Source: a virus (Duplodnaviria > Caudoviricetes). Taken from it: 64,000 nucleotides of DNA. Both the position numbers and the translations under genes were made by a program. The notes below the pieces were generated by a model that was not told the DNA's origin, made no database searches, and worked only from the letters and a program-made list of their open reading frames with translations. The DNA lies in the IMG/VR virus record IMGVR_UViG_3300005805_000068, positions 16,627 through 80,626 of that record. The stretch is one strand, 5' to 3'. Shown piece by piece: positions 16,447 to 64,000 of this stretch. Position 1 is the first letter of the stretch. Each line of letters begins with the position of its first letter.

Positions 16447-17246
16447 TAAGATTATTATTCTTAGTGCTGTTATTAACAGCGTCAACTTTATGTTATGCTC
16501 ACTCTAGCATAGTCTACAATTATACAGATAATGTTCTAGAGTACGAAGAAGATATGGACAAACCAAGACCAATCGCATCGTTAACAAAGTTAATGACAGC
16601 ACTATTAATAGTTGAATCGAATCTTGACCTTGCTAAAGAAGTAAAATATAAAGGCGGTATTTGGCAAACACGCATGGTATCAAGACAAGAGTTATTAGAT
16701 TCTTTATTGATACGCAGCGACAATGCAGCGGCTGATGCATTAGCTGATAGTTGGCCAGGTGGGCGTACTTACTTTATTAAAGAAATGAATTTTCGTGCAG
16801 AACAATTAGGCATGACTAAAACTAAATTTTTTGATCCGCACGGATTAGACAAAAGAAATATCAGTTGTGCCAAAGACCTTGCCAGATTAATTGTTGAAGA
16901 TAGTAAACACAAATTAATTGCAAATACCTCAACAAACAAATACCTAATGATCGAACGTAAGAATAAGAAAAAAATCTCTTATGTGTCTATTGGAAACACC
17001 AATAAGAATCTATTATTTGAATTTGACGAAATTATTTTATCCAAAACAGGTTGGACTAACCCAGCGGGTAGATGTCTTGCTTTGATGGTTCAAAAAGGCG
17101 ATAAAAAATATGTTATCGTTATTTTGGGCGAATCAACTCCTAAAGATCGTGAAGAAAAAGCTAGACAACTTATATTCAACTATGCTATAATGAATGAAAC
17201 AGAAAAGGATAGACATGAAAATAGGTTTCACTTGTTCCACTTTTGA
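16443..17246 (+). CDS. Peptidase S11 D-Ala-D-Ala carboxy/endopeptidase (low-MW penicillin-binding protein) with signal peptide
   Basis: SxxK (IASLTKLMT), SxN (RSDN), KTG (SKTGWT) and FFDPHGL motifs. Hydrophobic N-terminus. Confidence 0.9.
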   Translation: MIRLLFLVLLLTASTLCYAHSSIVYNYTDNVLEYEEDMDKPRPIASLTKLMTALLIVESNLDLAKEVKYKGGIWQTRMVSRQELLDSLLIRSDNAAADALADSWPGGRTYFIKEMNFRAEQLGMTKTKFFDPHGLDKRNISCAKDLARLIVEDSKHKLIANTSTNKYLMIERKNKKKISYVSIGNTNKNLLFEFDEIILSKTGWTNPAGRCLALMVQKGDKKYVIVILGESTPKDREEKARQLIFNYAIMNETEKDRHENRFHLFHF

Positions 17247-24177: not shown

Positions 24178-25014
24178 ATGGACTATTACTCAACTCTTGG
24201 ATTAAAACGCGGTGCTAGTGCTGATGATATTAAAAAAGCCTATCGAAGCCTAGCAATGAAACACCATCCAGACCGCGGTGGTGATGAAAAGAAATTTAAA
24301 GAAATTTCACAAGCCTACGAATTTTTAACCGACCCTCAAAAGAAATCTATTATCGATATGGGTGGTGATCCAAATTCCCAAGGAGGATTCCATCATGGTC
24401 GAGGGGATCCTTTTGAATTCCATTTTGGAACTGAAGATTTAAATGATCTATTTGGTAACTTTGGATTTGGATTCGGTGGTAGACCCCAACGAAGAAATAG
24501 AAGTCTAAGTATTAATGTTGAAATTAATCTAGAAGAAGTACTAACCGGAAAAGAAATTAACGCAGAAGTTGGTGTTCCGGGTGGTAGTAAAAAAATGATT
24601 AATATTGAAATACCACCAGGTATACAACATGGACAACAGATCAAATATCAAGGAATGGGAGATCACACCATGACTGATATTCGTCCTGGTGATTTAATAG
24701 TCAACATTTTTGTAAGACCGCATAGTACATTCCGCAGAGAAGGAAATAATCTAATATTTGAAAAATCTATCACTATCTGGGATGCAATATTAGGATCAAA
24801 AATTGCTATCGATACATTAGATAAAAAAACTTTACATATTACAGTACCTCCAGGCACACAACCAGATACTGTAATGAGTTGTAACGGTGAAGGATTACCT
24901 GATATGAGAACTAAACATCGAGGTAATTTGTTGATTAGAATTAAAGTCAACGTACCAAGAAATCTAACTTACGATCAATATCAAAAAATACAGGAACTAA
25001 AGAATGTCATTTAA
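24178..25014 (+). CDS. dnaJ: DnaJ-class (CbpA/type II) co-chaperone
   Basis: J domain with HPD, G/F-rich linker, DnaJ C-terminal domains, no Zn finger. Confidence 0.92.
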   Translation: MDYYSTLGLKRGASADDIKKAYRSLAMKHHPDRGGDEKKFKEISQAYEFLTDPQKKSIIDMGGDPNSQGGFHHGRGDPFEFHFGTEDLNDLFGNFGFGFGGRPQRRNRSLSINVEINLEEVLTGKEINAEVGVPGGSKKMINIEIPPGIQHGQQIKYQGMGDHTMTDIRPGDLIVNIFVRPHSTFRREGNNLIFEKSITIWDAILGSKIAIDTLDKKTLHITVPPGTQPDTVMSCNGEGLPDMRTKHRGNLLIRIKVNVPRNLTYDQYQKIQELKNVI

Positions 25015-25501
25015 TTTAGGTCCTCACGAAAGTCTTATACAAGTCAGTACTAACTGGGAGTTTGGTATTGATGGAGACGCTAAACAATTAGAAAAAGATC
25101 TAATTGAATTTATGTTGGCCAATAAAGGAATTGGTTTGGCTGCTAATCAGATCGGATTAACTAAACGTGTTTTTGTAATGGGAAGTAACAATATCGAAGG
25201 ATTTCCTGTACCTTTCGCTGTGTTTAATCCTGTAATAACAGAAGCCAGCACAGATTTAGTATTAGATGAGGAAGGATGTTTAAGTTATCCCGATTTATTT
25301 TTAAAAGTAAAAAGGCCAAACTGGATTATCGCACAGTATCAAGACAGCGAAGGTAATCTAAAAGAAATTAAAGCCGAAGGATATTTGGCCAAATGCTTTC
25401 AACACGAATATGATCATCTAAATGGTGTATGTTTTGTTGACAGAGTATCACAGATGAAGTTACAATTAGCTATGAAGAAAATAAGGAAAAAGAATAAATG
25501 A
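25004..25501 (+). CDS. def: Peptide deformylase
   Basis: GIGLAANQ, EGCLS and QHEYDHL (HExxH) motifs. Confidence 0.95.
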   Translation: MSFNLGPHESLIQVSTNWEFGIDGDAKQLEKDLIEFMLANKGIGLAANQIGLTKRVFVMGSNNIEGFPVPFAVFNPVITEASTDLVLDEEGCLSYPDLFLKVKRPNWIIAQYQDSEGNLKEIKAEGYLAKCFQHEYDHLNGVCFVDRVSQMKLQLAMKKIRKKNK

Positions 25502-27846
25502 TCGAACCGAGCCAAAATCTACAAGCTATCTTTGAAAACAGTATTAAGATCGCTCAAGAAAATCAGCATGAATATATCACTATTGAACATTTAGTTTATG
25601 CGATCTTATGTGATCAGGAATCTCATGCTTTCATGGAAGGGTTTGGTGCTGATGTTAATTTTATCAAAACCAATCTTGAACACTACATTAAAAATAATAT
25701 GGCTGATATTAAAACCGATAATAAAAATATCAAACCTAAAAAAACAAATAGTGTAGAACGTGTACTTAATCGATGCTTTACTCAAGTTCTGTTTAGCGGA
25801 CGTCAACGTATGGAAGTTGCTGATGTGATTGTTAGCGTTCTTTCGGAAAAGAATAGTTTTGGATTTTACTTCTTACAGAAGGGCGGAGTTACCAAAGAGA
25901 AGTTTGTTAAGTTCTTCCAAGAAAATCTTATCATAGAAGAAGTTGAAGAGATGGAAGAAGAAACCAGAGTTACTGCTCATCACGGAAATGGTGAAAAAAT
26001 ACTTAATCAATTTTGTACTAATCTTTCATTAAAGGCGAAACAAAGAACCATCGACCCAGTTATTGGTCGTGATGAAGAAATTGAAAAAATTAATCTTGTG
26101 TTAGCAAGACGTAATAAATCAAATGTGTTAATGGTAGGTGAACCAGGTGTAGGTAAGACTGCTATTGCTGAAGGTATCGCTCGTAAAATCTTTGAAAAGA
26201 AAGTACCTAAATTTATTCAAGACCACACAGTATACACATTAGATATCGGAGCATTACTTGCTGGTAGTAAGTATCGAGGAGACTTTGAAGAACGTATCAA
26301 ATCAGTATTAAACACACTCGAGAAAAAAGGAAAAATTATTTTATTCATTGACGAAGCACACATGATGAGTGGTGCTGGAACCGCTAGCAACAGTCCAAAT
26401 GATCTGGCCAATCTGTTAAAACCAGTGCTTACTAAGGGTGTAATAAAGCTCATCGCAAGTACCACTTGGGAAGAGTATCGCAAGCACTTTGAAAAAGACC
26501 GTGCTTTAATGCGCAGATTCCAACGTGTTAATATTGATGAACCTACTCCAGACATGGCAGTTAAAATCCTCAAAGGTCTTAAAAAGTATTACGAAAAACA
26601 TCACAACGTTAAGATTAGCGATGCTGCTATCGAACAAGCAGTTAAATTGTCAGTTAAGTATATGAGTGATAAAAAATTACCTGATAAAGCCATCGATATC
26701 ATTGACTGTGCTTCAGCTCGTTACAAACTTAAAGACGATGAAACTACAGAAGGTGTAGAACAGATTGTTGATATTGAACAGGTCACTTATGAGCTTAGTA
26801 AGATGATTAATATGCCATTAGAAACAGTGGCTCAAAAAGAAAGTAAAAATCTTGCTGATTTAGAATCAGGTATGAAAGGTGCTGTATACGGGCAGGATGA
26901 TGCTGTAGATACATTGCTCGATAAGATCTTTGTATCACAGGCAGGAATGAAGTCACCAAATAAACCTATTGGATCATTCCTTTTCCTTGGGCCAACTGGT
27001 TGCGGTAAGACCGAAACTGCTAAACAACTGTCAGATAAGATGGGGATGCCTCTTGTGCGATTTGATATGGGCGAATATCAAGAGAAACATTCAGTAGCAC
27101 GTTTGATTGGTGCGCCTCCGGGATATGTAGGTTATGAAGATAATGCCGGTCAACTTATTACTAAATTACAAGAAACTCCTAACAGTATTCTGTTATTGGA
27201 TGAAATTGAAAAAGCACATCCAGATGTTACTAATATCCTGTTAGCATTCATGGATAATGGATTTGTTACAGGTTCTAACGGCAAACAGGCAGATGGACGT
27301 AACTGTATTCTTATCATGACATCAAACTTAGGTGCTGCTGATAATGAAAACAATACTATTGGTTTTGGTGCGTTGGACAAAGAAGGCGAAGATGATAAAG
27401 CAGTTAAGAAATTCTTTGCTCCAGAGTTTAGAAATCGGTTAGATGGTATTATTAAATTTACTAAACTATCACAAGATACTGTTGCACAGATTGTTAAAAA
27501 ATTCATCGGTGATCTCAATGATCAACTTAAAGACAAAGGTATTGAAATTGTCGCAGGTGCTAATGCTGTTAAATGGTTGTCAGATAAAGGGTATGACAGC
27601 AAGATGGGTGCTAGACCGTTGGCAAGATTGATTGATAATAAAATTAAGAGTCCATTAAGTCGACGTGTATTATTTGGAGATTTAGTAGATGGTGGTCGTG
27701 TAAATATCACCGTTGAAAACGATGAGTTATCTTTTACAATAACAGAATTACCTAAGCCCTTAACAAAAGCAGAACGCAAGGCTCTCAAAGCTGCAAAATT
27801 TACAGAAAATATAGTTGAGACCGCAGATGAAAACACTGACAACTAA
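25498..27846 (+). CDS. clpA: ClpA-type Hsp100 ATPase
   Basis: Clp N domain, two Walker A motifs (GEPGVGKT, GPTGCGKT), GAPPGYVG and a ClpP-docking IGF loop (NTIGFG). Confidence 0.92.
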   Translation: MIEPSQNLQAIFENSIKIAQENQHEYITIEHLVYAILCDQESHAFMEGFGADVNFIKTNLEHYIKNNMADIKTDNKNIKPKKTNSVERVLNRCFTQVLFSGRQRMEVADVIVSVLSEKNSFGFYFLQKGGVTKEKFVKFFQENLIIEEVEEMEEETRVTAHHGNGEKILNQFCTNLSLKAKQRTIDPVIGRDEEIEKINLVLARRNKSNVLMVGEPGVGKTAIAEGIARKIFEKKVPKFIQDHTVYTLDIGALLAGSKYRGDFEERIKSVLNTLEKKGKIILFIDEAHMMSGAGTASNSPNDLANLLKPVLTKGVIKLIASTTWEEYRKHFEKDRALMRRFQRVNIDEPTPDMAVKILKGLKKYYEKHHNVKISDAAIEQAVKLSVKYMSDKKLPDKAIDIIDCASARYKLKDDETTEGVEQIVDIEQVTYELSKMINMPLETVAQKESKNLADLESGMKGAVYGQDDAVDTLLDKIFVSQAGMKSPNKPIGSFLFLGPTGCGKTETAKQLSDKMGMPLVRFDMGEYQEKHSVARLIGAPPGYVGYEDNAGQLITKLQETPNSILLLDEIEKAHPDVTNILLAFMDNGFVTGSNGKQADGRNCILIMTSNLGAADNENNTIGFGALDKEGEDDKAVKKFFAPEFRNRLDGIIKFTKLSQDTVAQIVKKFIGDLNDQLKDKGIEIVAGANAVKWLSDKGYDSKMGARPLARLIDNKIKSPLSRRVLFGDLVDGGRVNITVENDELSFTITELPKPLTKAERKALKAAKFTENIVETADENTDN

Positions 27847-28480
27847 TAAGAAATTTTACAACAAATGGTTGTATAAGGTTTCTCTCAATGCTCCCTATTC
27901 CAATGCTTTTAGAATATATGATTTTGACGAGATTAAGAATCACTGTTATTCTAATAATGAAGACCATCTTAGATGGATAGGGGCTAATGTTAGGGAGCAT
28001 AAGGATCAAATAATTCCGTTGGTAGAATATTTAGAAACATTAGATCCTAGTGCATGGACTAAACGTATAGAGACTCGACAGATAGATTTTTATACTAATG
28101 ACTCTATTATATACGAAGACCTTTTTGAAAAATTCCAAGATCAAGTCATACATAGATCTGCTCCTTCCGGACAGACATTAGATTCAAAATCTATATTAAC
28201 TACTAAATTACCTCACGGAAAATATCGATATAGGGTATATCTACAACCTCATAAACTTAAAAATGATCGAGATGGTAAGAAAAAGTATTTAGATTGGCTT
28301 ATCGGGCAATCTCCTAGAATTACCTGTACAGATGCTGTACAACGTTGGTTCTTAAAAACTGATTGGAATTGGGACCGCAGATACGTATTAGTAGAAGATG
28401 AAGGCACTTTATTGATGCTTAAACTAAGAAATCCAGAGGTTATGGGCAGTGTCTATAACTATGTCTTAAGCGATAAATAA
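27827..28480 (+). CDS. Hypothetical protein
   Basis: Long ORF overlapping the clpA end. Start taken at ATG 27827. Confidence 0.65.
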   Translation: MKTLTTNKKFYNKWLYKVSLNAPYSNAFRIYDFDEIKNHCYSNNEDHLRWIGANVREHKDQIIPLVEYLETLDPSAWTKRIETRQIDFYTNDSIIYEDLFEKFQDQVIHRSAPSGQTLDSKSILTTKLPHGKYRYRVYLQPHKLKNDRDGKKKYLDWLIGQSPRITCTDAVQRWFLKTDWNWDRRYVLVEDEGTLLMLKLRNPEVMGSVYNYVLSDK

Positions 28481-28837: not shown

Positions 28838-28861
28838 GTTTCAAAAGGCGATAAATATAGT

Positions 28862-29944
28862 ATGACCTTACGGAACCATACTATGAGAGACCTTATATCA
28901 AAATTAGACGCATTAATCAATGAAACTACACTTAGTACATTCGATCCTAAAGATGACTATGATGCTAAATCTAAAAATTTACAAGATCTAGAAAGAAACA
29001 AAGACATAGATCCCGAAGCTGTTAAGCAACGTAAACTAGATCTAGATAAAGAAGCACGTGCTAAAGGTGTTAAAGAAGAGTTTGAAGTTGGGGACTCCTT
29101 CGGAATTAGCTTTTCAGAAGATCACGAAATTTCTACAGAAATTGTAGGATTTTTAGAAGATGGCATCGTTATTGATCTTGATGATGCTGCTTTAGAGATG
29201 TTAGATCAAGAAGGAATATTCTTTATCGAAGGCGAAGTTCTAGATGAAAGTAAAGGACCATGTTGGGTAGGCTACAAACAGGTAGGAATGAAAAATAAAG
29301 GCGGTAAGCAGGTTCCTAATTGTGTAAAAGAAAGTGGACTACAATACTACACCGGCAAAAAGAAATACGGTAAAGATGGAATGACTGCATTAGCACAAGC
29401 CGGTCGTGATGGTGCTTCAGAACAAGAATTAGGCAAAATCAAAGACAAATACAAGAAAGAAGATCACGGTCCGGAAGATCCAGACGCAAGTTACAATGTT
29501 GGTGAATATGATCGTGAAGGTGATATGGCCAAAGATCAATTACGTACTGTAAATGATGCTGCCAAAGAACTATACAGTATTATCCAAGCAGATGAAAATC
29601 TTCCAGAATGGGTGCAGGCTAAGATTACTAAGGCCATGGACTATTTAGATACAGCACGTGATTACATGAAGGCCAACAAATATGCCGAAGATATTGATAT
29701 GGACGAAGCCAAATATCACGGTAAAGAAGTTCCGCTAGGTAAAAAATTACCAGGCGATGTAAAGAAATCAAAAGTATATGTGCGTAAGCCTAATGGTAAG
29801 ATCGTTAAAGTAAACTTTGGCGATAAGAAAATGCGTATCAAGAAATCTAATCCAGCACGTAGACGTTCATTCCGTGCTAGACATAATTGCAAAAATCCAG
29901 GACCGCGTTGGAAAGCACGCTATTGGTCATGTAGGAGTTGGTAA
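28862..29944 (+). CDS. Modular putative internal head protein
   Basis: Short modules (GPCWVGYKQVG..PNCVK; EGDMAKDQL..LPEWVQAKIT; KVNFGD..RRSFRARHNC..ARYWSC) separated by Glu-ending motifs. Start may be 28883. Confidence 0.6.
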   Translation: MTLRNHTMRDLISKLDALINETTLSTFDPKDDYDAKSKNLQDLERNKDIDPEAVKQRKLDLDKEARAKGVKEEFEVGDSFGISFSEDHEISTEIVGFLEDGIVIDLDDAALEMLDQEGIFFIEGEVLDESKGPCWVGYKQVGMKNKGGKQVPNCVKESGLQYYTGKKKYGKDGMTALAQAGRDGASEQELGKIKDKYKKEDHGPEDPDASYNVGEYDREGDMAKDQLRTVNDAAKELYSIIQADENLPEWVQAKITKAMDYLDTARDYMKANKYAEDIDMDEAKYHGKEVPLGKKLPGDVKKSKVYVRKPNGKIVKVNFGDKKMRIKKSNPARRRSFRARHNCKNPGPRWKARYWSCRSW

Positions 29945-30282
29945 TGAAGTTATTCGAACTGTTTAGTCCTATCGGAGCTCCTAAGGAAGCCGATCAAGAT
30001 ATTGATTGGATAGGTGACTTAAAATTTTATATCGACAATGATGAAAAAATGCTCAGCAATTATTTCTTTCCTGCTGTTAAGCGTCATCAAGAATACAAAG
30101 GCAATCCAAATGCCTATAAAATTTATATCAGACCTATTGAAAAATGTTTAGATAGTTATTGTCAACAATATGAAATCCAAGATCGAGAAGTAAAATTTCC
30201 TAAGGAACAGCTTATTGAATTGGCTAAGCAAATGGCTGAAGAACAAGAAAAGCACATAGACCACGGCGACTATGAGAATTAA
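29944..30282 (+). CDS. Hypothetical protein with MKLFELF N-terminus
   Basis: TAATG coupling gives a start at 29944. Confidence 0.6.
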   Translation: MKLFELFSPIGAPKEADQDIDWIGDLKFYIDNDEKMLSNYFFPAVKRHQEYKGNPNAYKIYIRPIEKCLDSYCQQYEIQDREVKFPKEQLIELAKQMAEEQEKHIDHGDYEN

Positions 30283-31366
30283 CGAACTATTTGAAGCAGA
30301 TTCGAAGCATGCCGCATTTTGTTTCGGCAGAATGAATCCTCCTACGGTTGGACATAAACAATTACTAAACACTGTTAAAAGTGTAGGTGGGGATCATTTC
30401 ATTTTTGTTAGCCAATCACAAGATCCTAAAAAAAATCCTTTAGATTATTCTACCAAAATTAAGTTTATGAAACTTATGTTTCCCGAACATGCTAAAAATA
30501 TTGTAGAAGATTCAAGTCTAAATACGGTTGTAAAAGTTGCTAGTTACGTGTATAATTTAGGTTATAGAAATGCAACCTTTGTAGCAGGGAGTGATAGATT
30601 AGATACTATGAAACAGCTACTTACGCAATACAATGGAGTAGAAGGCAAAGCACACGGTTTCTATCAGTTCGATGTACTTGATTTTAAGTCAAGCGGTGAT
30701 CGTGAAGACGGAGCGGAAGGAGTTGCTGGAGTTAGTGCGAGCAACGCTCGAGTTGCCGCAGCTAATAATGATTTAGAAGCATTTAAAGAATCAACAGGTG
30801 CTGGACAGTATGCAGAACCACTGTTCAAAGCAGTTCGTCAAGGTATGGGAATACAAGAAGGACTAGAAGAAGGAAAATTTAGAAGTAGAGATGTTGAAGA
30901 ACGATTGATACCTAATAAAAAATTAAATGATCTAAAAAGTAAATATCTTCCCGATTGGGAAATGTTGGATCACAGAATTCTACAGGCAAAGTATGTTGCT
31001 AAGGATCATAGACATGCCGAGGAATTGGTTTCTTACATAAACAAAATCAGTGAAGAAATGGATCATTTTGCTGAAGTTACCCAAGATGTTGCAGAAGTAA
31101 CTGTTAAGACTTCAACCTTTGATGTTAAAGGTTTAACTGTGTTAGATTTTAAACTAGCATTAAAAGTTGACAAATATGCAGAGTCTAACGATATCGAACA
31201 GGTAAGAATGCAAGGTAATTTTGGTATGCACGAAGGCAAGAAAGATGCCTGCTATAACAAAGTTAAAAGTCGTGTCAAAGTATGGCCTTCAGCTTATGCC
31301 AGCGGACAGTTAGTGCAATGTCGCAAACGCGGTGCTGCCAATTGGGGAACAGGTAAGAAAAAATGA
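30272..31366 (+). CDS. Fusion of an HxGH nucleotidyltransferase-like domain, a pterin-4a-carbinolamine dehydratase-like domain and a basic Cys module
   Basis: FGRMNPPTVGH; W...LQAKY..KD......INKISEEMDHFAEV....VTVKTSTFDVKGLTVLDFKLA; DACY.KVKSR.KVWPSAYASG.LVQCRK. Confidence 0.65.
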   Translation: MRINELFEADSKHAAFCFGRMNPPTVGHKQLLNTVKSVGGDHFIFVSQSQDPKKNPLDYSTKIKFMKLMFPEHAKNIVEDSSLNTVVKVASYVYNLGYRNATFVAGSDRLDTMKQLLTQYNGVEGKAHGFYQFDVLDFKSSGDREDGAEGVAGVSASNARVAAANNDLEAFKESTGAGQYAEPLFKAVRQGMGIQEGLEEGKFRSRDVEERLIPNKKLNDLKSKYLPDWEMLDHRILQAKYVAKDHRHAEELVSYINKISEEMDHFAEVTQDVAEVTVKTSTFDVKGLTVLDFKLALKVDKYAESNDIEQVRMQGNFGMHEGKKDACYNKVKSRVKVWPSAYASGQLVQCRKRGAANWGTGKKK

Positions 31367-31719
31367 GAGCGCACGAGTTTATCAATGAGGACCTGCGTAA
31401 ATGGTTTAAACAAAAGTGGGTACGATTTGGTCCCGACGGTAAGATCCGCGGAGACTGTGCTAGAGGATCAGAAAAAGAAGGCAAGCCTAAGTGTTTACCA
31501 CAAAGCAAAGCACATGCACTAGGCAAGAAGGGTAGGGCCTCGGCAGCGGCTCGCAAGCGTAGAGAAGATCCTAATCCAGAACGCAAAGGCAAGGCGATTA
31601 ATGTCAGTACTAAGAAAAAATCAAATGAAGATGTAGCAGAAGGATATGGACGTTACTGGTGTTCAACAGATAAGAAATGGAAAACTCGCAAAGGGCCTAA
31701 ACAAAAGAGATCATCATGA
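31363..31719 (+). CDS. Basic putative internal head protein
   Basis: MRAHEFINE leader followed by an EDLRKWFKQKWV...C...KPKCLP module. Confidence 0.6.
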   Translation: MRAHEFINEDLRKWFKQKWVRFGPDGKIRGDCARGSEKEGKPKCLPQSKAHALGKKGRASAAARKRREDPNPERKGKAINVSTKKKSNEDVAEGYGRYWCSTDKKWKTRKGPKQKRSS

Positions 31720-32177
31720 AGATAGCCGATATTATTGAAAGTCGTGGGCATAAGATTATTGCTACTAAACTGGCAAATATGGACCGTATGAAAAATATTC
31801 AAATTCCTACTCCCGCCGAACGTAGAGCACAACTAGATAAACAAAAAGAACAAGAAAAGAAAATTAAAGAAGGAATGCCTGGTTGGGATCGAGAATTTTC
31901 TGTAGGCACATATACATACTATACCTACGACGAAAGAGAAGAGGATAATCGTAAAACATTCCATGCTGTACAAAGTGATGACGGAAAACAATTTGATGTA
32001 GATTGGACACCATACGGAAAAATGACTCCACAAGACTTAAAAATTTGGATCAAATTAGGTATGCCTGATCGCAAATCTATTAAGAGTATCGGTCCATTGC
32101 GTCATGAAGATCTAGTCAAATATGCACAAGCACAAGGTATTGCTAATCTAGATCCAGAATTAGCAGGCGCAAAATAA
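31716..32177 (+). CDS. Hypothetical protein with MKIADIIE leader
   Basis: 153 aa with ATGA overlap. Confidence 0.6.
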   Translation: MKIADIIESRGHKIIATKLANMDRMKNIQIPTPAERRAQLDKQKEQEKKIKEGMPGWDREFSVGTYTYYTYDEREEDNRKTFHAVQSDDGKQFDVDWTPYGKMTPQDLKIWIKLGMPDRKSIKSIGPLRHEDLVKYAQAQGIANLDPELAGAK

Positions 32178-32386
32178 TGGAATTAGACGAACTAAAAAAA
32201 TTAGCAGGTATTACAGAGTTCAAAGGATTTCAACTTTACGGTGGTAGCAATATCAGTATTACCGGTAATGAGAAACAAAAGTTAGAAAAGGAGCATAATA
32301 TTAAACCAGGTACTCCAGAATGGTTTCAATTATGGTTCAGTTTACCATACCTAACTGGTGAACCACCGATAGGAGATAAGAAATGA
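32177..32386 (+). CDS. Hypothetical protein
   Basis: 69 aa, [11 protein letters not shown]...PGTPEWF.LWF. Confidence 0.6.
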
Positions 32387-32733
32387 TCACAGTAATAGAG
32401 CAACCACAATTAGTCACCATAGCACCAGGTGCTATTGCTAAGATCAAAGAACTGATCGCAGAAGAAAATAATCCTAATTTAAAATTGCGTATGTTCGTTA
32501 GTGGTGGCGGATGTAGTGGTATGCAGTATGGATTTACTTTTGAAGAAGAAGCCAACGAAGATGATTTTGATCTAGAGTTTGAAGGCATACATCTGTTGAT
32601 TGACAGTATGAGCAGTCAATATCTACAAGGTGCAGAAGTAGACTATACAGAGTCATTACAAGGTAGTCAATTTAGTATTAAAAATCCACAAGCACAAACT
32701 ACATGTGGGTGTGGGAGTTCTTTTAGCGCATGA
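32383..32733 (+). CDS. erpA: A-type Fe-S carrier (ErpA/IscA, HesB family)
   Basis: [17 protein letters not shown] and TCGCGSSF motifs. Confidence 0.92.
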
Positions 32734-33380
32734 GAGCCAGTGATTTAGCATTACCGGAGGGAATGGAAATCTATCTAGATATGGATGGGGTTCTTGCAGA
32801 CTTCTTTCACGAATATGCTAAGTTGGCAGGTGTTCCAGCAAACAAATATGGTAAACACGATTATCGCAGTATTCCTCCAGCCAAGGCAGATCCTACATTA
32901 GATAAAATGGTAGGTACAGATTTCTTTGATAGACTTCCTAAGTTCCCTACAACTGATAAACTAATACAAATTGCTGTAGATGCAGCAGGTGGATATAATA
33001 TCTGCTCAAGTCCATTACGTGGTGATCACGAAGGATCAGCAAAATATAAACGTAGTTGGATTGCTAGAGAATTAGAAACACAACCTAAACTAATACACAT
33101 CACTCCAAACAAAGCCAAATATGCTAAAAATGCTGATGGTATGCCTAATGTATTAATTGACGATCGAGGCAGTAATATTTCAGCATGGGAAGCAGCAGGC
33201 GGCATTGGTATCAAATATCAAGCAGACGAGAACAGCCTCAAAGTAGTATTAGACGGACTTAAACGTGCCCGTCGTATTGCTAAGGGTGAAGAAGAACATG
33301 AACCGCAAGAATTAGTCAGCAAGGATAGAGGCGGCAGTTCTGCTATTGCTACTCCTGGAGATAAGAATGAGAGCATTTGA
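32730..33380 (+). CDS. HAD-family 5'(3')-deoxyribonucleotidase-like protein
   Basis: [19 protein letters not shown] and LIDD...W..AGGIGI motifs. Confidence 0.85.
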
Positions 33381-33690
33381 ATTTATCACAGAAGCCAAGC
33401 GTAAAAAGCGCAAACCACGCTGGGCTGCTTATGGTCCAGGTCCATTTGGCGGATATGGATATGCTGTAGGCTATAGTGGAGACGGCGGTGTTGCCAGTGG
33501 AGACGGTGGCGGAGTTGGAGAAAACTTCGCAGATAGTAAAAAGCCAGGACGTAAAGGACTAGCCAAACGTAGTGGTGTAAACTGTAAAGCCAGTATTAGC
33601 AGCCTACGTAAAACTGCTAAGAACAGCACAGGTGAAAAACGTAGAATGGCACATTGGTGTGCTAATATGAAGTCAGGTAGAAATAAATAG
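33367..33690 (+). CDS. Basic Gly-rich protein with MRAFEFITE leader
   Basis: Start at ATG 33367. C-terminal KPGRKGL..R.G..C...AHWC.NM module. Confidence 0.6.
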   Translation: MRAFEFITEAKRKKRKPRWAAYGPGPFGGYGYAVGYSGDGGVASGDGGGVGENFADSKKPGRKGLAKRSGVNCKASISSLRKTAKNSTGEKRRMAHWCANMKSGRNK

Positions 33691-33696
33691 TATATC

Positions 33697-33957
33697 ATGA
33701 AAATTAAAGACATTTTAGAATCAGCAACAGCGGGAGCTACAAGCTCTGGCAATATTGCTACTGTTGTAAGCCCACATCTTGCTATAGGTAAAGATCTCGG
33801 CAATAAATCATATACAGGCAGTCCTGGAAAATCAGGTACAAAAGCACCTAAAGTTCCTAAAGTAAAACAACCAAAGAATCTAGATGGAACAGCTAAAAAC
33901 GCTTTGGACATGAAAGGCACCAATATATTTGGTGGTGGCTCTGCCATTAAAAGATAA
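33697..33957 (+). CDS. Hypothetical protein with MKIKDILE leader
   Basis: ATAAATA directly upstream. Confidence 0.6.
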   Translation: MKIKDILESATAGATSSGNIATVVSPHLAIGKDLGNKSYTGSPGKSGTKAPKVPKVKQPKNLDGTAKNALDMKGTNIFGGGSAIKR

Positions 33958-33994
33958 ATACAATATGACCCTTTAAAACCCAAGGAATAAGGAA

Positions 33995-34840
33995 ATGGAC
34001 TTTAAATCACTAGTACAAAAAATTACAAGCATGGACGATCCTATCAAGACCGTTGCTGCTCCAGAACTTCCAAAAGCTGTTCAACTCAATGAAGACGCAG
34101 AATTGCGTGTCTTAGCTGGAACTTCAACTATTCTTGCAGAAGCAAAGAAAAAAGAAGAATCTGAAAAGAAAGAAGAAAGTGTTAAAGAAGAAATGGAAGT
34201 TGGTGATTCAAAGAAAACTGCAGGTGGTGGCACAGTTACTAAAACAGCAACTGGTATTATCCACAAAGGTAAAAAATACGGCGGTGAAGAAGAAAAGTCA
34301 GATGACGAAGAAGACGCACCTAAATCTAAGAAAGAATCTATCGATGCAGAAGCATTTAAAGGCAAGTTTGCTAAAATGGTAGAAGCAAAGAAAGAAAAGA
34401 AAGAAGATAAAAAGAAACCAATGAAAGAAGCTGCTAAACCAGATTTCTTAGACATTGACAAAGATGGCGACAAGAAAGAGCCTATGAAAAAAGCTGCTAA
34501 AGAAAAGGGCGGCGATAAGAAAGATGGCAAGAAGGGCATGAGTGCTAAACAAGCCAAATATTTTGGAAAGAAAGACGAGTCTGTAAAGTCCGATAAGAAA
34601 GTAGTAGCAGAATCAGTAGAACCAAAATTAACTTTCAAAGATATGGTTAAACTTGTACAAGAAAGTGGTGGCCAACAACGTATCGATGCTAAAGACGAAG
34701 CATTATTTTCCTGGGCTCAACGTGTAGCTGCTGCTAAATTTACAGAATCAGCAAAACAAGAAGTATATGCCGGATTAGTTTATGAACGTATGGGCGGCGT
34801 ATTTGAAATGTACGACGTTCTTTCAGAAAATCAAAAGTAA
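33995..34840 (+). CDS. K/E-rich putative head core/scaffold-like protein
   Basis: Highly charged, with about ten xxE-(A/S/D) motifs and an EF-hand-like DFLDIDKDGDKKE segment. Confidence 0.55.
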   Translation: MDFKSLVQKITSMDDPIKTVAAPELPKAVQLNEDAELRVLAGTSTILAEAKKKEESEKKEESVKEEMEVGDSKKTAGGGTVTKTATGIIHKGKKYGGEEEKSDDEEDAPKSKKESIDAEAFKGKFAKMVEAKKEKKEDKKKPMKEAAKPDFLDIDKDGDKKEPMKKAAKEKGGDKKDGKKGMSAKQAKYFGKKDESVKSDKKVVAESVEPKLTFKDMVKLVQESGGQQRIDAKDEALFSWAQRVAAAKFTESAKQEVYAGLVYERMGGVFEMYDVLSENQK

Positions 34841-34855
34841 TATTACCAAAATAAC

Positions 34856-34889
34856 AAAAAGCCAGCAATTTTAATTGACTGGCTTTTTT
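34856..34889 (+). terminator. Rho-independent terminator ending the head-protein cluster
   Basis: AAAAAGCCAG-CAAT-TTTA-ATTG-A-CTGGCTTTTT inverted repeat with T-run. Confidence 0.75.
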
Positions 34890-34903
34890 GTTGGCTATAT
34901 AAT
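34875..34903 (+). promoter_or_regulatory. sigma70 promoter for the dsbA-like to DNA polymerase unit
   Basis: TTGACT (34875-80), N17, TATAAT (34898-903). Confidence 0.8.
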
Positions 34904-55828: not shown

Positions 55829-57177
55829 CTAAAATAAAATGTCGATAATTCAGGGAATGTTTCAACAAAATTTGTGCCTCGTCTATGATCATATTCTGTA
55901 AACCAATTATAGAAATCTCTCCAACCTTCTAATAATTTGTCATCGGAATATTTTGAAGTTTCCATATACTTAACTACACGTAGAAATTTTTCATATTCAA
56001 GTTCTGAAAATTTACTGCGATTTTTATCATCGAGATTGGTCTTGATGTATTCTAGATGTTTATACATATACGGCATGAAATCTTCTTTAGGTAATAAATT
56101 CATATCATATTGTAAAGGTTCTTTTAAGAAAGGAGTATCAAATCTAATACGTTGCCATTTATTCTGTTCAAATCCATTATATTTCTCACGCCATTCTAAT
56201 ATTTTTTCTAGCAGTGACTGAAAATTAGTCACTGTTAAAATATTAAATGTTATCATAAATGTGATAGGTAATTGTGTCTTGGTTAGATAAGTGTCTAGAT
56301 TACGTTCCCATACTTCTAAATCTAATCCAGTACGGATGTATTCAGCAGGTTTACCCCAAGTATCAATACTGGTAAAAATTTTAAAATCTTTGATACAACC
56401 TTTTGATAGTAGATTGTTTACCTTTTCTACAAGACGATCTATCATCACGGGTTTCACACCGAAGTTACTATTGATATTCAATTCAAGTTGTGGTTGGGGA
56501 TTTTTTTCTAATTCATCAAATAATCGCCAGGTGCTTTGTTGTAACAAAGGTTCTCCACCTGTGATACGCAAGATAGTTAGTGTCTTGCTAACTTCCGGCC
56601 ACCATTTCCACCATGCTTCAACATAGGGATTAGTTTCTTCTTCGTATATAGTAAACCAATCGATGTCATTCCGATGATTTTTAACCATAGAGTAAGGACC
56701 GTGATCTTTAATCTCTTTGTAGTATGCTGAACTATGTTTAGGATGGCAGTACCCGCATTTAAAATTACATTCATTACCGAAACTAATCTCAATGTACTGC
56801 GGGTTTATGTGCTTTAAAGGATTATGTTTTATTTCAGCAAGCCTTTCTTCGGTATAGATACTAGCATTGCGTTCTTTACGATCGCTGATGTAATCCTCAC
56901 CCATGGCTTCGATGTTCCAGCAATAATTACATCCACTCGGCTTACCGCCTGATAGCATTTCAGCACGTTCTGATATTTTTTGTCTAGTGTTGTGAAGAGC
57001 GTCTACTTTGTGTGCAAGTTCTTGTAACGGAATCTTATGCGGAGCAGGATGGTAACAACTATGTGTTTCTCCTGTACCTAAGTAGATGGTCGTGTGATGC
57101 CACTTCGCTAAACAAAATGTCGGCGAAACCTCATTCATTATAGGAATGAATTTTTGTATGCGAGCTTTATCGTCCAA
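55813..57177 (-). CDS. Radical SAM protein with N-terminal auxiliary Cys cluster
   Basis: CNFKCGYC and ITGGEPLL. N-terminal FCLAKW...SCYH...CNYCW (SPASM/twitch-like). Confidence 0.85.
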   Translation of the reverse strand: MDDKARIQKFIPIMNEVSPTFCLAKWHHTTIYLGTGETHSCYHPAPHKIPLQELAHKVDALHNTRQKISERAEMLSGGKPSGCNYCWNIEAMGEDYISDRKERNASIYTEERLAEIKHNPLKHINPQYIEISFGNECNFKCGYCHPKHSSAYYKEIKDHGPYSMVKNHRNDIDWFTIYEEETNPYVEAWWKWWPEVSKTLTILRITGGEPLLQQSTWRLFDELEKNPQPQLELNINSNFGVKPVMIDRLVEKVNNLLSKGCIKDFKIFTSIDTWGKPAEYIRTGLDLEVWERNLDTYLTKTQLPITFMITFNILTVTNFQSLLEKILEWREKYNGFEQNKWQRIRFDTPFLKEPLQYDMNLLPKEDFMPYMYKHLEYIKTNLDDKNRSKFSELEYEKFLRVVKYMETSKYSDDKLLEGWRDFYNWFTEYDHRRGTNFVETFPELSTFYFRCMNI

Positions 57178-57844
57178 ATCGTTCTCTCAACCAATCAAAA
57201 TCATTGATCATTTTTAATGCTTCATTGTTGTCTTTATTTTCTAATCCGTATTGTTTTCCTTGCACAGCACCTTCAATAGCTTCTCTACCAAAAGGTCGAT
57301 CAAGTCCTCTAGTACACCAAACATTTAATCTATAGTTTGTGTCAGCATCATCCTGTCGATCGATAGTCTTACTGGCTAGCTTTACACATTCTCTAAAAGC
57401 ACTTTTCCATGTGTTAAACGGATCTACATTGAAAGCTGTAACGTTACTAACCTCTGGCATTGCTTTGAATAGCGTTGAGATACTAGTGGTCATATCTGGC
57501 TTAGAAATATCCATATTTTGTGTCAATCGTTTAGGCAATAACTTTACACCGCCGTACCCATATTCTAAATCGTTAATAGGATTGCGACTGCGCCATACGT
57601 GTACATTTTCTAAATCATAGTCGCTAACTACATGATCAAAATTAAAAGTATCTAATATATGAGCATCTGCATCAACTACCCAGAACATTTTTGTAAATGC
57701 TTTTTTAGCAGCAGCGATGTGAGCCTGATGTATACCTTTAATACCATCGACTCTCTGAGCATAAGGAAATCTAGATTTAAGTTTAGAAAAATTCTCATCT
57801 GCCTGAGGTTCATTATAGCTGATGAATATAATATCGTATCTCAT
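57167..57844 (-). CDS. GT-A-like protein (paralog A)
   Basis: IFISYNEP.AD and FWVVDADA (DxD). Confidence 0.6.
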   Translation of the reverse strand: MRYDIIFISYNEPQADENFSKLKSRFPYAQRVDGIKGIHQAHIAAAKKAFTKMFWVVDADAHILDTFNFDHVVSDYDLENVHVWRSRNPINDLEYGYGGVKLLPKRLTQNMDISKPDMTTSISTLFKAMPEVSNVTAFNVDPFNTWKSAFRECVKLASKTIDRQDDADTNYRLNVWCTRGLDRPFGREAIEGAVQGKQYGLENKDNNEALKMINDFDWLRERFGR

Positions 57845-58722
57845 CGTTTATAGTATGTCCTTACTAATTCGATAGTTTCATCATATAAGTCTAAAGTAAA
57901 CTTACTCTGTTGTTCATCTAAATATGGCCAATCTAATCCTAGATTTATTTTTATTTTTTCTCCTAATTCTCGAATATCACGTTCTACATTTTTATGATCA
58001 ATATTTTGTTCGTACATGTTTCTTAGGATTTCAAAATCTCTAACATCAATATAATTCCAATCGGTACAGTTAGTCATCCAGGTTCCCATTCGAGCTCCAA
58101 GAATAGAATATGCTCCATACTCTTCGTGTGAACCCACAGTTGACCACATACGCAATCTATGGATATTGTGCCACCAGATACGTTCTTTGATTTCCATCGG
58201 TGGAACTTTAACTCCGTCAAGCAAAGTCATCTTAACTCCTTCACGGAATCCTGCACGCCAGGCTTGGAAAGGACTGCCGTTAATTATACTATCACTATAA
58301 ACTGTAGGAAAATTACGGTATCCATCTTCCCAACAGAAATCTACTTGAGCTCGATCGCTTTCGCTAGCTTCATGGGTTCTCATATTAACTACAAAATCTT
58401 TTTTCCAGATTTTTAATCCGCCATTACCATAACGTAATCCATTAATTTTATTTCTTCCACACCATCCATAAACCTGTATCTTTGGATCTGTCATATCTAG
58501 ATCCAAATCAAAAAAACTTGGATGTACTATGTTATCTGCATCAACAGTAATAAACCATTCAGTATCAGATAATGCTGCGGCCGCTTTATGTGCTGCATCT
58601 GATCCTTTAACTCCATGAACACGTTTTGCCCACGGTGCTTTGTTACATAGATCAGCGTAATGTAAATCTGCGTTGGGTTCATCATAACTGATGAATACTA
58701 TATCAAATTCTACTATTTTCAT
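57841..58722 (-). CDS. GT-A-like protein (paralog B)
   Basis: VFISYDEPNAD, FITVDADN and AWRAGFREGVK. Clearly paralogous to 57167..57844. Confidence 0.6.
   Translation of the reverse strand: MKIVEFDIVFISYDEPNADLHYADLCNKAPWAKRVHGVKGSDAAHKAAAALSDTEWFITVDADNIVHPSFFDLDLDMTDPKIQVYGWCGRNKINGLRYGNGGLKIWKKDFVVNMRTHEASESDRAQVDFCWEDGYRNFPTVYSDSIINGSPFQAWRAGFREGVKMTLLDGVKVPPMEIKERIWWHNIHRLRMWSTVGSHEEYGAYSILGARMGTWMTNCTDWNYIDVRDFEILRNMYEQNIDHKNVERDIRELGEKIKINLGLDWPYLDEQQSKFTLDLYDETIELVRTYYKR

Positions 58723-61450: not shown

Positions 61451-64000
<2,550 letters not shown>

Follow-up and report, generated by a model that had tools for sequence, protein, structure and literature searches.

The 64,000-nucleotide stretch analyzed here (the window) covers positions 16,627 to 80,626 of the viral record IMGVR_UViG_3300005805_000068, and makes up the final 64 kb of a viral contig of 80.6 kb. 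The region between 28.88 and 34.84 kb is filled by eleven genes (A to K; Table 1) that run in one direction and are for the most part translationally coupled through overlaps, and about seven of them begin with a short peptide resembling the capsid-targeting sequence (CTS) of phage T4. A preliminary description of this DNA had listed ten gene starts in the block as variants of one N-terminal tag. All ten starts are present, and six conform to a strict consensus, ^M[KR]..[ED][FIL].{1,3}E, a pattern derived post hoc: MRINELFE (30272), MRAHEFINE (31363), MKIADIIE (31716), MRAFEFITE (33367), MKIKDILE (33697) and a sixth match at 32730. The start at 28883 carries a longer, 14-residue version (MRDLISKLDALINE) that ends in L-I-N-E, i.e., in the hydrophobic-x-Glu of the strict tags; this position was taken as the true start of gene A because its orthologs in loci L005 and L009 and in contig G001 begin there (MRD(L/I)L). 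The remaining three starts, at 29944 (MKLFELFSPIGAPK, a member of another conserved family of N-terminal motifs), 32177 and 33995, are conserved motifs of other kinds.

Outside the block the tag is nearly absent, as had been claimed: none of the ~95 other open reading frame (ORF) starts on the whole 80.6-kb contig matched the strict consensus, nor did any internal Met (Fisher's exact test, 6/11 block genes versus 0/95 elsewhere, p = 2.7e-7 for a post hoc pattern). Within the block, the IscA/HesB-type gene G has no tag here or in any of the relatives, and therefore serves as an internal negative control. A scan of 82 related IMG/VR loci (1.19 Mb) recovered the tag at the first Met of 126 of 1867 ORFs, and 139 matches in 97 distinct proteins when a nearby Met was allowed, as compared with the 2.6 to 8.1 matches expected from column shuffles; this is a 15- to 50-fold excess, and the matches were always co-oriented and clustered. 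When 92 distinct tag-coding DNAs were compared, codon positions 1 and 2 carried the information whereas third positions were near background, and the GAA/GAG usage of the tags (0.84) equals that of the gene bodies (0.82), indicating that selection acts on the peptide and not on the RNA.

Table 1. Genes and candidate regulatory elements of the tagged block (coordinates are positions in the window).
Feature	Coordinates	Strand	Description
Gene A	28883..29944 (ORF opens 28862)	+	14-residue N-terminal motif MRDLISKLDALINE, then a module mosaic: two-Cys basic module (CWVGY...PNC), basic two-Cys C-terminus
Gene B	29944..30282	+	112 residues, acidic; start MKLFELFSPIGAPKE, loose tag; orthologs start MLLKEMFSPIGAPK
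Gene C	30272..31366	+	Tag MRINELFE, HxGH nucleotidyltransferase, tag remnant MGIQEGLEE, pterin-4a-carbinolamine-dehydratase-like (PCD) domain, junction GNFGMHE, basic two-Cys module
Gene D	31363..31719	+	Tag MRAHEFINE and two basic Cys modules; isoelectric point (pI) 10.4; homologous to T4-GC119 modules (Syn9 gp114, S-P4 'structural protein')
Gene E	31716..32177	+	Tag MKIADIIE and a body of unassigned role
Gene F	32177..32386	+	Conserved protein of 69 residues; start motif of a different kind (ELKKLAGI)
Gene G	32383..32733	+	IscA/HesB-type Fe-S protein; no tag here or in any relative
Gene H	32730..33380	+	Strict tag and 5'(3')-deoxyribonucleotidase-like HAD domain (phrog_2643)
Gene I	33367..33690	+	Tag MRAFEFITE, basic Gly-rich segment and NFADxKKPG two-Cys module; pI 10.5
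Gene J	33697..33957	+	Tag MKIKDILE and conserved SATAGATSSGNIA segment; pI 10.1; phrog_17311
Gene K	33995..34840	+	281 residues, Lys/Glu-rich; conserved start MDFKSL(I/V)xKI (here MDFKSLVQKI), a different motif
GATAAATA box	28850..28857	+	T4 late-promoter-like; in the gap before gene A
ATAAATA box	33683..33689	+	Just upstream of gene J
ATAAATA box	33954..33960	+	34 nt upstream of gene K
Intrinsic terminator	34852..34893	+	Long hairpin and U-run; folding free energy -17.4 kcal/mol, z -3.66, 0/200 shuffles as stable
Sigma-70-like promoter	34875..34903	+	TTGACT-17-TATAAT, 11/12 matches; opens the next unit, toward polB

The likeness to the T4 CTS (MKTYQEFIAE) that had been proposed for these peptides is real. 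The T4 sequence is cut once, after its final Glu (PMC8442874), and mutagenesis has assigned targeting to positions 4 and 7 and processing to positions 8 and 10 (PMC9026906), while varied proteins are found behind CTS-like leaders across the T-even phages (PMC9026906, PMC3012670). The tags of genes D and I contain the E-F-I-x-E core of the T4 peptide, and every strict tag ends in [FILMV]-x-E, so that P3 is hydrophobic and P1 is Glu, in agreement with the processing determinants at T4 positions 8 and 10. The 97 distinct tags of the relatives have F, I, L or V at positions 6/7 and mostly Glu at positions 8/9. As on the T4 internal proteins IPI-III, from which the CTS is removed by gp21, the tag is a peptide of about ten residues (8 to 10 in the six strict tags and 14 in gene A) that begins with M-K/R at the extreme N-terminus of proteins with unrelated bodies, save for genes D and I. 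Some of these proteins are strongly basic like the T4 internal proteins (pI 10.1 to 10.5 for D, I and J), and they are encoded in a variable locus of a lineage with a T4-type protease, scaffold and DNA polymerase.

Homologs of two of these protein types have been found in purified phage particles. The nucleotidyltransferase of gene C is homologous to the cyanophage core gene T4-GC190 (tblastn, 41-47% identity to cyanophage and Melnitz proteins), and the basic two-Cys modules of genes A, C and D have homologs among those joined end to end in T4-GC119. In purified S-SM1 virions, the T4-GC190 cytidylyltransferase was detected with 25 counts and T4-GC119 with 13 counts (Sullivan 2010, PMC3037559, Table S8), along with the products of the adjacent genes GC1453, GC1454 and GC1455 (PMC3037559). 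In S-CREM2 virions, ORF154-156, which correspond to the cytidylyltransferase and the next two ORFs, were detected, and the authors of that study described cytidyltransferases as frequent in cyanophage virions (PMC10665884). The starts that we read from the S-SM1 genome are CTS-like in GC190 (MKKFSAFLNE), with MNLNELPD in GC1454 and MLSFKELQE in GC1455, and the S-CREM2 cytidylyltransferase begins with MKNFSSFLTE; both transferase starts fit the T4 targeting positions exactly, with an aromatic residue at position 4 and Phe at position 7. A syntenic cluster was also observed in Melnitz (EXVC044M, a cultured OM43 phage; L108 12203-21701), with the T4-like starts MKKFSEIIE (on the transferase), MKKFSELTSE and MKNFKNHIAEE.

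The arrangement differs between the two groups, since the cyanophage modules are concatenated in one untagged protein, whereas here they are spread over several tagged genes. The C-terminal domain DUF6321 scores in Syn33_105 and in none of the window proteins, although these share other T4-GC119 modules; the window proteins are therefore relatives of T4-GC119 by module and not members by domain. None of the open-access papers searched connects the CTS with enzymes in marine phage or cyanophage virions; subscription articles, among them the one on the Syn9 proteome, lay outside the search.

A prohead protease of the required type is present in related phages. Peptidase S77 (PF03420) was found in the related contigs G001 (364 kb, complete), G002, G003 and G009, and in none of the ORFs of the 80.6-kb contig itself; it also occurs in all five cultured phages with a homologous cluster (Melnitz, S-SM1, S-CREM2, Syn33 and P-SSM4). 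In G009, the genes follow the T4 order of portal, small protein, acidic core protein, protease, 363-aa scaffold and major capsid protein, and MENKFEQLIE is the N-terminus of the acidic core protein. The N-terminus of gene A was also compared with that of the G009 scaffold (MLDVIKPLLDSDLINE), but the short-BLAST match had an E value of only 4.8 and is not used as evidence.

The bodies behind the tags had been described as unrelated and the block as free of repeated DNA. No long DNA repeats were found, and all-against-all BLAST matched only genes D and I (first 24 residues) and genes E and J (first nine residues); the bodies are nevertheless not fully unrelated, because they are mosaics in which small basic modules have been shuffled. 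Gene C encodes a fusion protein, with domain matches to PF01467, PF01329 and phrog_3041 (E = 1.9e-48), and many relatives encode the PCD-like part in a gene of its own that begins with its own tag (e.g., MKITDILEGKFRS) exactly where the window protein reads MGIQEGLEEGKFRS. After the conserved GNFGMHE, differing basic C-terminal modules are attached in the relatives of gene C, and the NFADGKKPG module directly follows the tag in one relative and elsewhere follows ...GVGE, ...GMHE, ...HVEE and similar sequences. The body of gene E is found internally in 1000-aa proteins of relatives, after ...LREFKE. Where a body stands behind a tag in one protein and internally in another, a Glu is aligned with the last Glu of the tag in 29 of 62 distinct junctions, a count that comes from mutually related sequences and is not independent. 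Such Glu residues would fit cleavage after Glu, and as the module boundaries inside longer proteins keep them, they are probably further protease sites, in which case some of the genes would encode small polyproteins.

We consider it probable that the block is a head-cargo operon of the T4 CTS type, processed by a prohead protease, in an uncultured phage of the T4 superfamily. The propeptide of 8 to 14 residues on about seven of the eleven genes (M-K/R followed by two variable positions, an acidic one, one or two that are hydrophobic, and Glu) would work like the T4 CTS, docking the protein on the scaffolding core during prohead assembly. A T4-type prohead protease of the Peptidase S77 family would then cut after the Glu with a hydrophobic residue at P3, and the mature protein would remain amid the packaged DNA and exit with it at infection; the tagged proteins would thus probably be packed with the DNA and injected. 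We infer these steps of docking, cleavage, retention and ejection; what is observed is the motif and its specificity, constraint at the protein level, shuffling at the tag, homology to virion-detected proteins and the protease in relatives.

The enzyme cargo would consist of an NMNAT-like nucleotidyltransferase fused to the PCD-like domain, and of a 5'-deoxynucleotidase-like protein, which in one relative is fused to a GH19 wall hydrolase. In that relative (L030:9652-11301), the gene H ortholog is tagged and joined to an NFADGK basic module and a GH19 domain (chitinase class I type; PF00182, E = 6e-12), a combination that would suit an entry-associated virion enzyme. The other cargo would be small, very basic two-Cys modules, as strung together in the cyanophage virion protein T4-GC119. 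The preliminary description had gone further, with a whole library of tagged proteins including metabolic enzymes; enzymes are indeed among the putative cargo, and the set is limited to about seven genes. Its proposal that the tag marks virion cargo is supported by the cyanophage homologs in virions, by their more T4-like starts, by the T4-type protease in relatives and by the Glu at junctions, but the head genes of this phage do not lie on the contig. Compared with the T4 system, what is new is the distant, jumbo-sized and uncultured lineage, the shorter and more degenerate tags, and a putative cargo of enzymes and mosaic, Glu-delimited, polyprotein-like proteins.

Several points weigh against this reading. 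The 80.6-kb contig contains no head genes, the prohead protease and scaffold included, and both are known only from relatives at ~60% identity. The operon lies among replication and chaperone genes, away from structural genes, although the T4 ip genes are likewise separate from the head cluster. Of the ten starts first listed, three or four are different motifs. The tags fall 1-2 residues short of the T4 CTS in length; those of D and I fit the T4 targeting positions with a one-residue deletion, those of C, E, J and H lack the aromatic residue of position 4, and that of gene H has Pro at P2. The junction Glu might simply be a residue of the modules and not mark a site of cleavage, and a late-promoter reading of the ATAAATA boxes (below) is weak because two of them lie only 4 nt before an ATG. 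Among the virion proteomes, T4-GC190 was not detected in S-PM2 or Syn9 (PMC3037559, Table S8), and the authors of the S-CREM2 study cautioned that abundant enzymes might co-purify with virions (PMC10665884).

Two other explanations of the tag deserve consideration, both of which we judge unlikely. The tag might be a docking or recognition signal for another machine, such as a phage ClpA-type unfoldase or DnaJ, a degron, or a signal for a multi-enzyme complex in the infected cell. The dnaJ gene, def and a gene for a 782-aa ClpA/B-type ATPase lie directly upstream of the operon (24178-27846), the operon itself is in the replication region, and ordinary metabolic enzymes are among the tagged proteins. 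However, Melnitz, S-SM1, S-CREM2, Syn33 and P-SSM4 have no ClpA-type AAA_2 domain above cut-off, while all five have S77; the tag is therefore independent of the upstream ClpA gene. The presence of homologous proteins in virions and the match of the tag to the T4 CTS core also speak against such a machine.

Alternatively, the proteins could be virion-associated while the motif, instead of targeting them, is a short helix with some other role (e.g., folding, solubility or oligomerization), with packaging achieved through DNA-binding basic modules or other features; this is about as improbable as the previous explanation. The cyanophage T4-GC119 is found in virions yet starts without a tag, and basic modules could bind DNA unaided. 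Against this, some tagged proteins, such as H and E, have no basic module, the tag stays at the very N-terminus in front of unrelated bodies and is regenerated when a module becomes a separate gene, and in T4 the 10-residue CTS alone suffices.

A signal at the level of translation initiation or mRNA (e.g., AU-richness in the first codons, or a RegA-type operator spanning the start codon) is very unlikely. AAA, AGA, TTT and TTA are preferred in the tags over the gene bodies, and the genes are translationally coupled, but the third codon positions carry almost no information, GAA/GAG usage is at background, and conservation follows amino-acid class (E/D; F/I/L/V via a second-position T). The motif is also lacking from ~95 other genes and from the IscA-type gene inside the operon, which in every relative is likewise untagged and argues against a locus-wide initiation effect. 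Chance or simple paralogy, with an N-terminus common by descent to a few related genes, is scarcely credible: D and I have their first 24 residues in common and the consensus is post hoc, but the bodies are otherwise unrelated, one body occurs with different tags and one tag with different bodies, and the excess over shuffles comes from independent loci.

Gene F may provide a second address, directed to the shell or the scaffold. Its start, the invariant ...ELKKLAGI, has a counterpart at the extreme C-terminus of the scaffold protein, which reads ...DLRKLAGL in G009 (56872-57963, equivalent to L115:16872-17963) and ...IRKLAGLKV in G001 (93107-94198). The LKKLAGI-type motif occurs once in the contig, and among ~2500 proteins only two further occurrences were found, one C-terminal and one internal. 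We regard this N-terminus as a lead; a complex prediction for the G009 major capsid protein and the G009 ortholog of gene F (score 0.10, mark 0.32) counts neither way. Combining both signals, a bolder reading is conceivable, if doubtful: this jumbo-phage lineage would sort its head cargo combinatorially by two address codes, the cleavable CTS-like N-terminal tag and the LKKLAGI copy of the scaffold C-terminus. The cargo would consist of Glu-delimited mosaic polyproteins, which the prohead protease would cut into enzymes and small basic two-Cys peptides with a role in condensing or protecting the packaged DNA. If this were true, the proteins that uncultured T4-like phages inject could be predicted by applying a short tag rule to their sequences alone, and the presence of metabolic enzymes in cyanophage virions would be accounted for.

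T4-like phages of marine and fresh waters rank with the most abundant viruses. 'Non-structural' enzymes recur in their purified particles, and to our knowledge the route by which these enter has so far been unexplained. A CTS-type reading of the tag offers a mechanism for the published but unexplained enzymes in cyanophage virions. Such a cleavable address would let the set of injected proteins of uncultured phages be deduced from sequence, would mark candidate early-acting effectors, including nucleotide-metabolism enzymes, wall hydrolases and possible anti-defense proteins, and would make the T4 CTS usable for packaging in other phage chassis.

Other phages and encapsulins provide partial parallels. 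In the giant phages phiKZ, 201phi2-1 and SPN3US, a gp21-related protease cleaves many head-internal proteins (ejection or inner-body proteins) after Glu, their propeptides contain several sites, and a large protein cargo is ejected; their propeptides are long and have no common N-terminal 9-mer, their cleavage motif is S/A/G-x-E, and they belong to another phage lineage. Encapsulin cargo-loading peptides similarly send unrelated enzymes inside an HK97-fold shell by means of a short terminal peptide, but these are usually C-terminal, bind the shell directly and are uncleaved. The LKKLAGI motif of gene F may be the closer analog of the encapsulin peptides.

Among the individual genes, the modules of gene A match phrog_727, phrog_7595 and the cyanophage T4-GC119, and a tblastn search of gene J against cultured phages gave no match. 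Genes A and K have in common a 34-nt stretch that is 82% identical (window 29064-29097 and 34176-34209) and encodes VKEE(F/M)EVGDS, a tag-like acidic-hydrophobic-Glu linker inside two otherwise unrelated proteins. A 170-aa ORF on the minus strand (window 33471-33983), antisense to genes I and J and rich in Pro, Leu and Ser, misleads longest-ORF gene calling and is almost certainly spurious.

The ATAAATA motifs noted earlier for the block amount to four boxes, at 28473, 28851, 33683 and 33954. On the contig the motif occurs 14 times in forward and twice in reverse orientation, as compared with ~29 expected per strand, and is therefore both depleted and strand-biased. It often appears as sGATAAATA just before gene starts, including those of tail-fibre-like genes (window 10457, 28473, 28851 and 49972, and in the part of the contig before the window). 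This box is a candidate late promoter of the lineage, weakly indicated and compatible with a T4-like late promoter. The block closes at a terminator, as previously described; the hairpin and U-run were identified by folding, and were missed by a consensus terminator scan because of the long stem and loop.

In addition to the operon, the contig encodes tail-fibre-like genes, a clamp loader, a T4-type family-B DNA polymerase, a 7-deazaguanine cluster and several host-like genes. The polymerase has 46-50% identity to those of the jumbo phages Phosso and Atu_ph07, and matches 2669 T4-type phage records. CheckV completeness estimates for close-relative contigs (18% for 62 kb, 23% for 86.5 kb and 36% for 132 kb) indicate a genome of ~350 kb. 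The three genes directly upstream of the cargo operon overlap one another, with dnaJ encoding J and C-terminal domains, def a peptide deformylase and the third a double-AAA ATPase. Toward the end of the window (62000-64000), GC content rises from ~0.34 to 0.49, and the minus strand of the contig end carries a P-II nitrogen regulator truncated to 70 aa and an ammonium transporter represented by its C-terminal part, which are either host-derived auxiliary genes or an assembly chimera.

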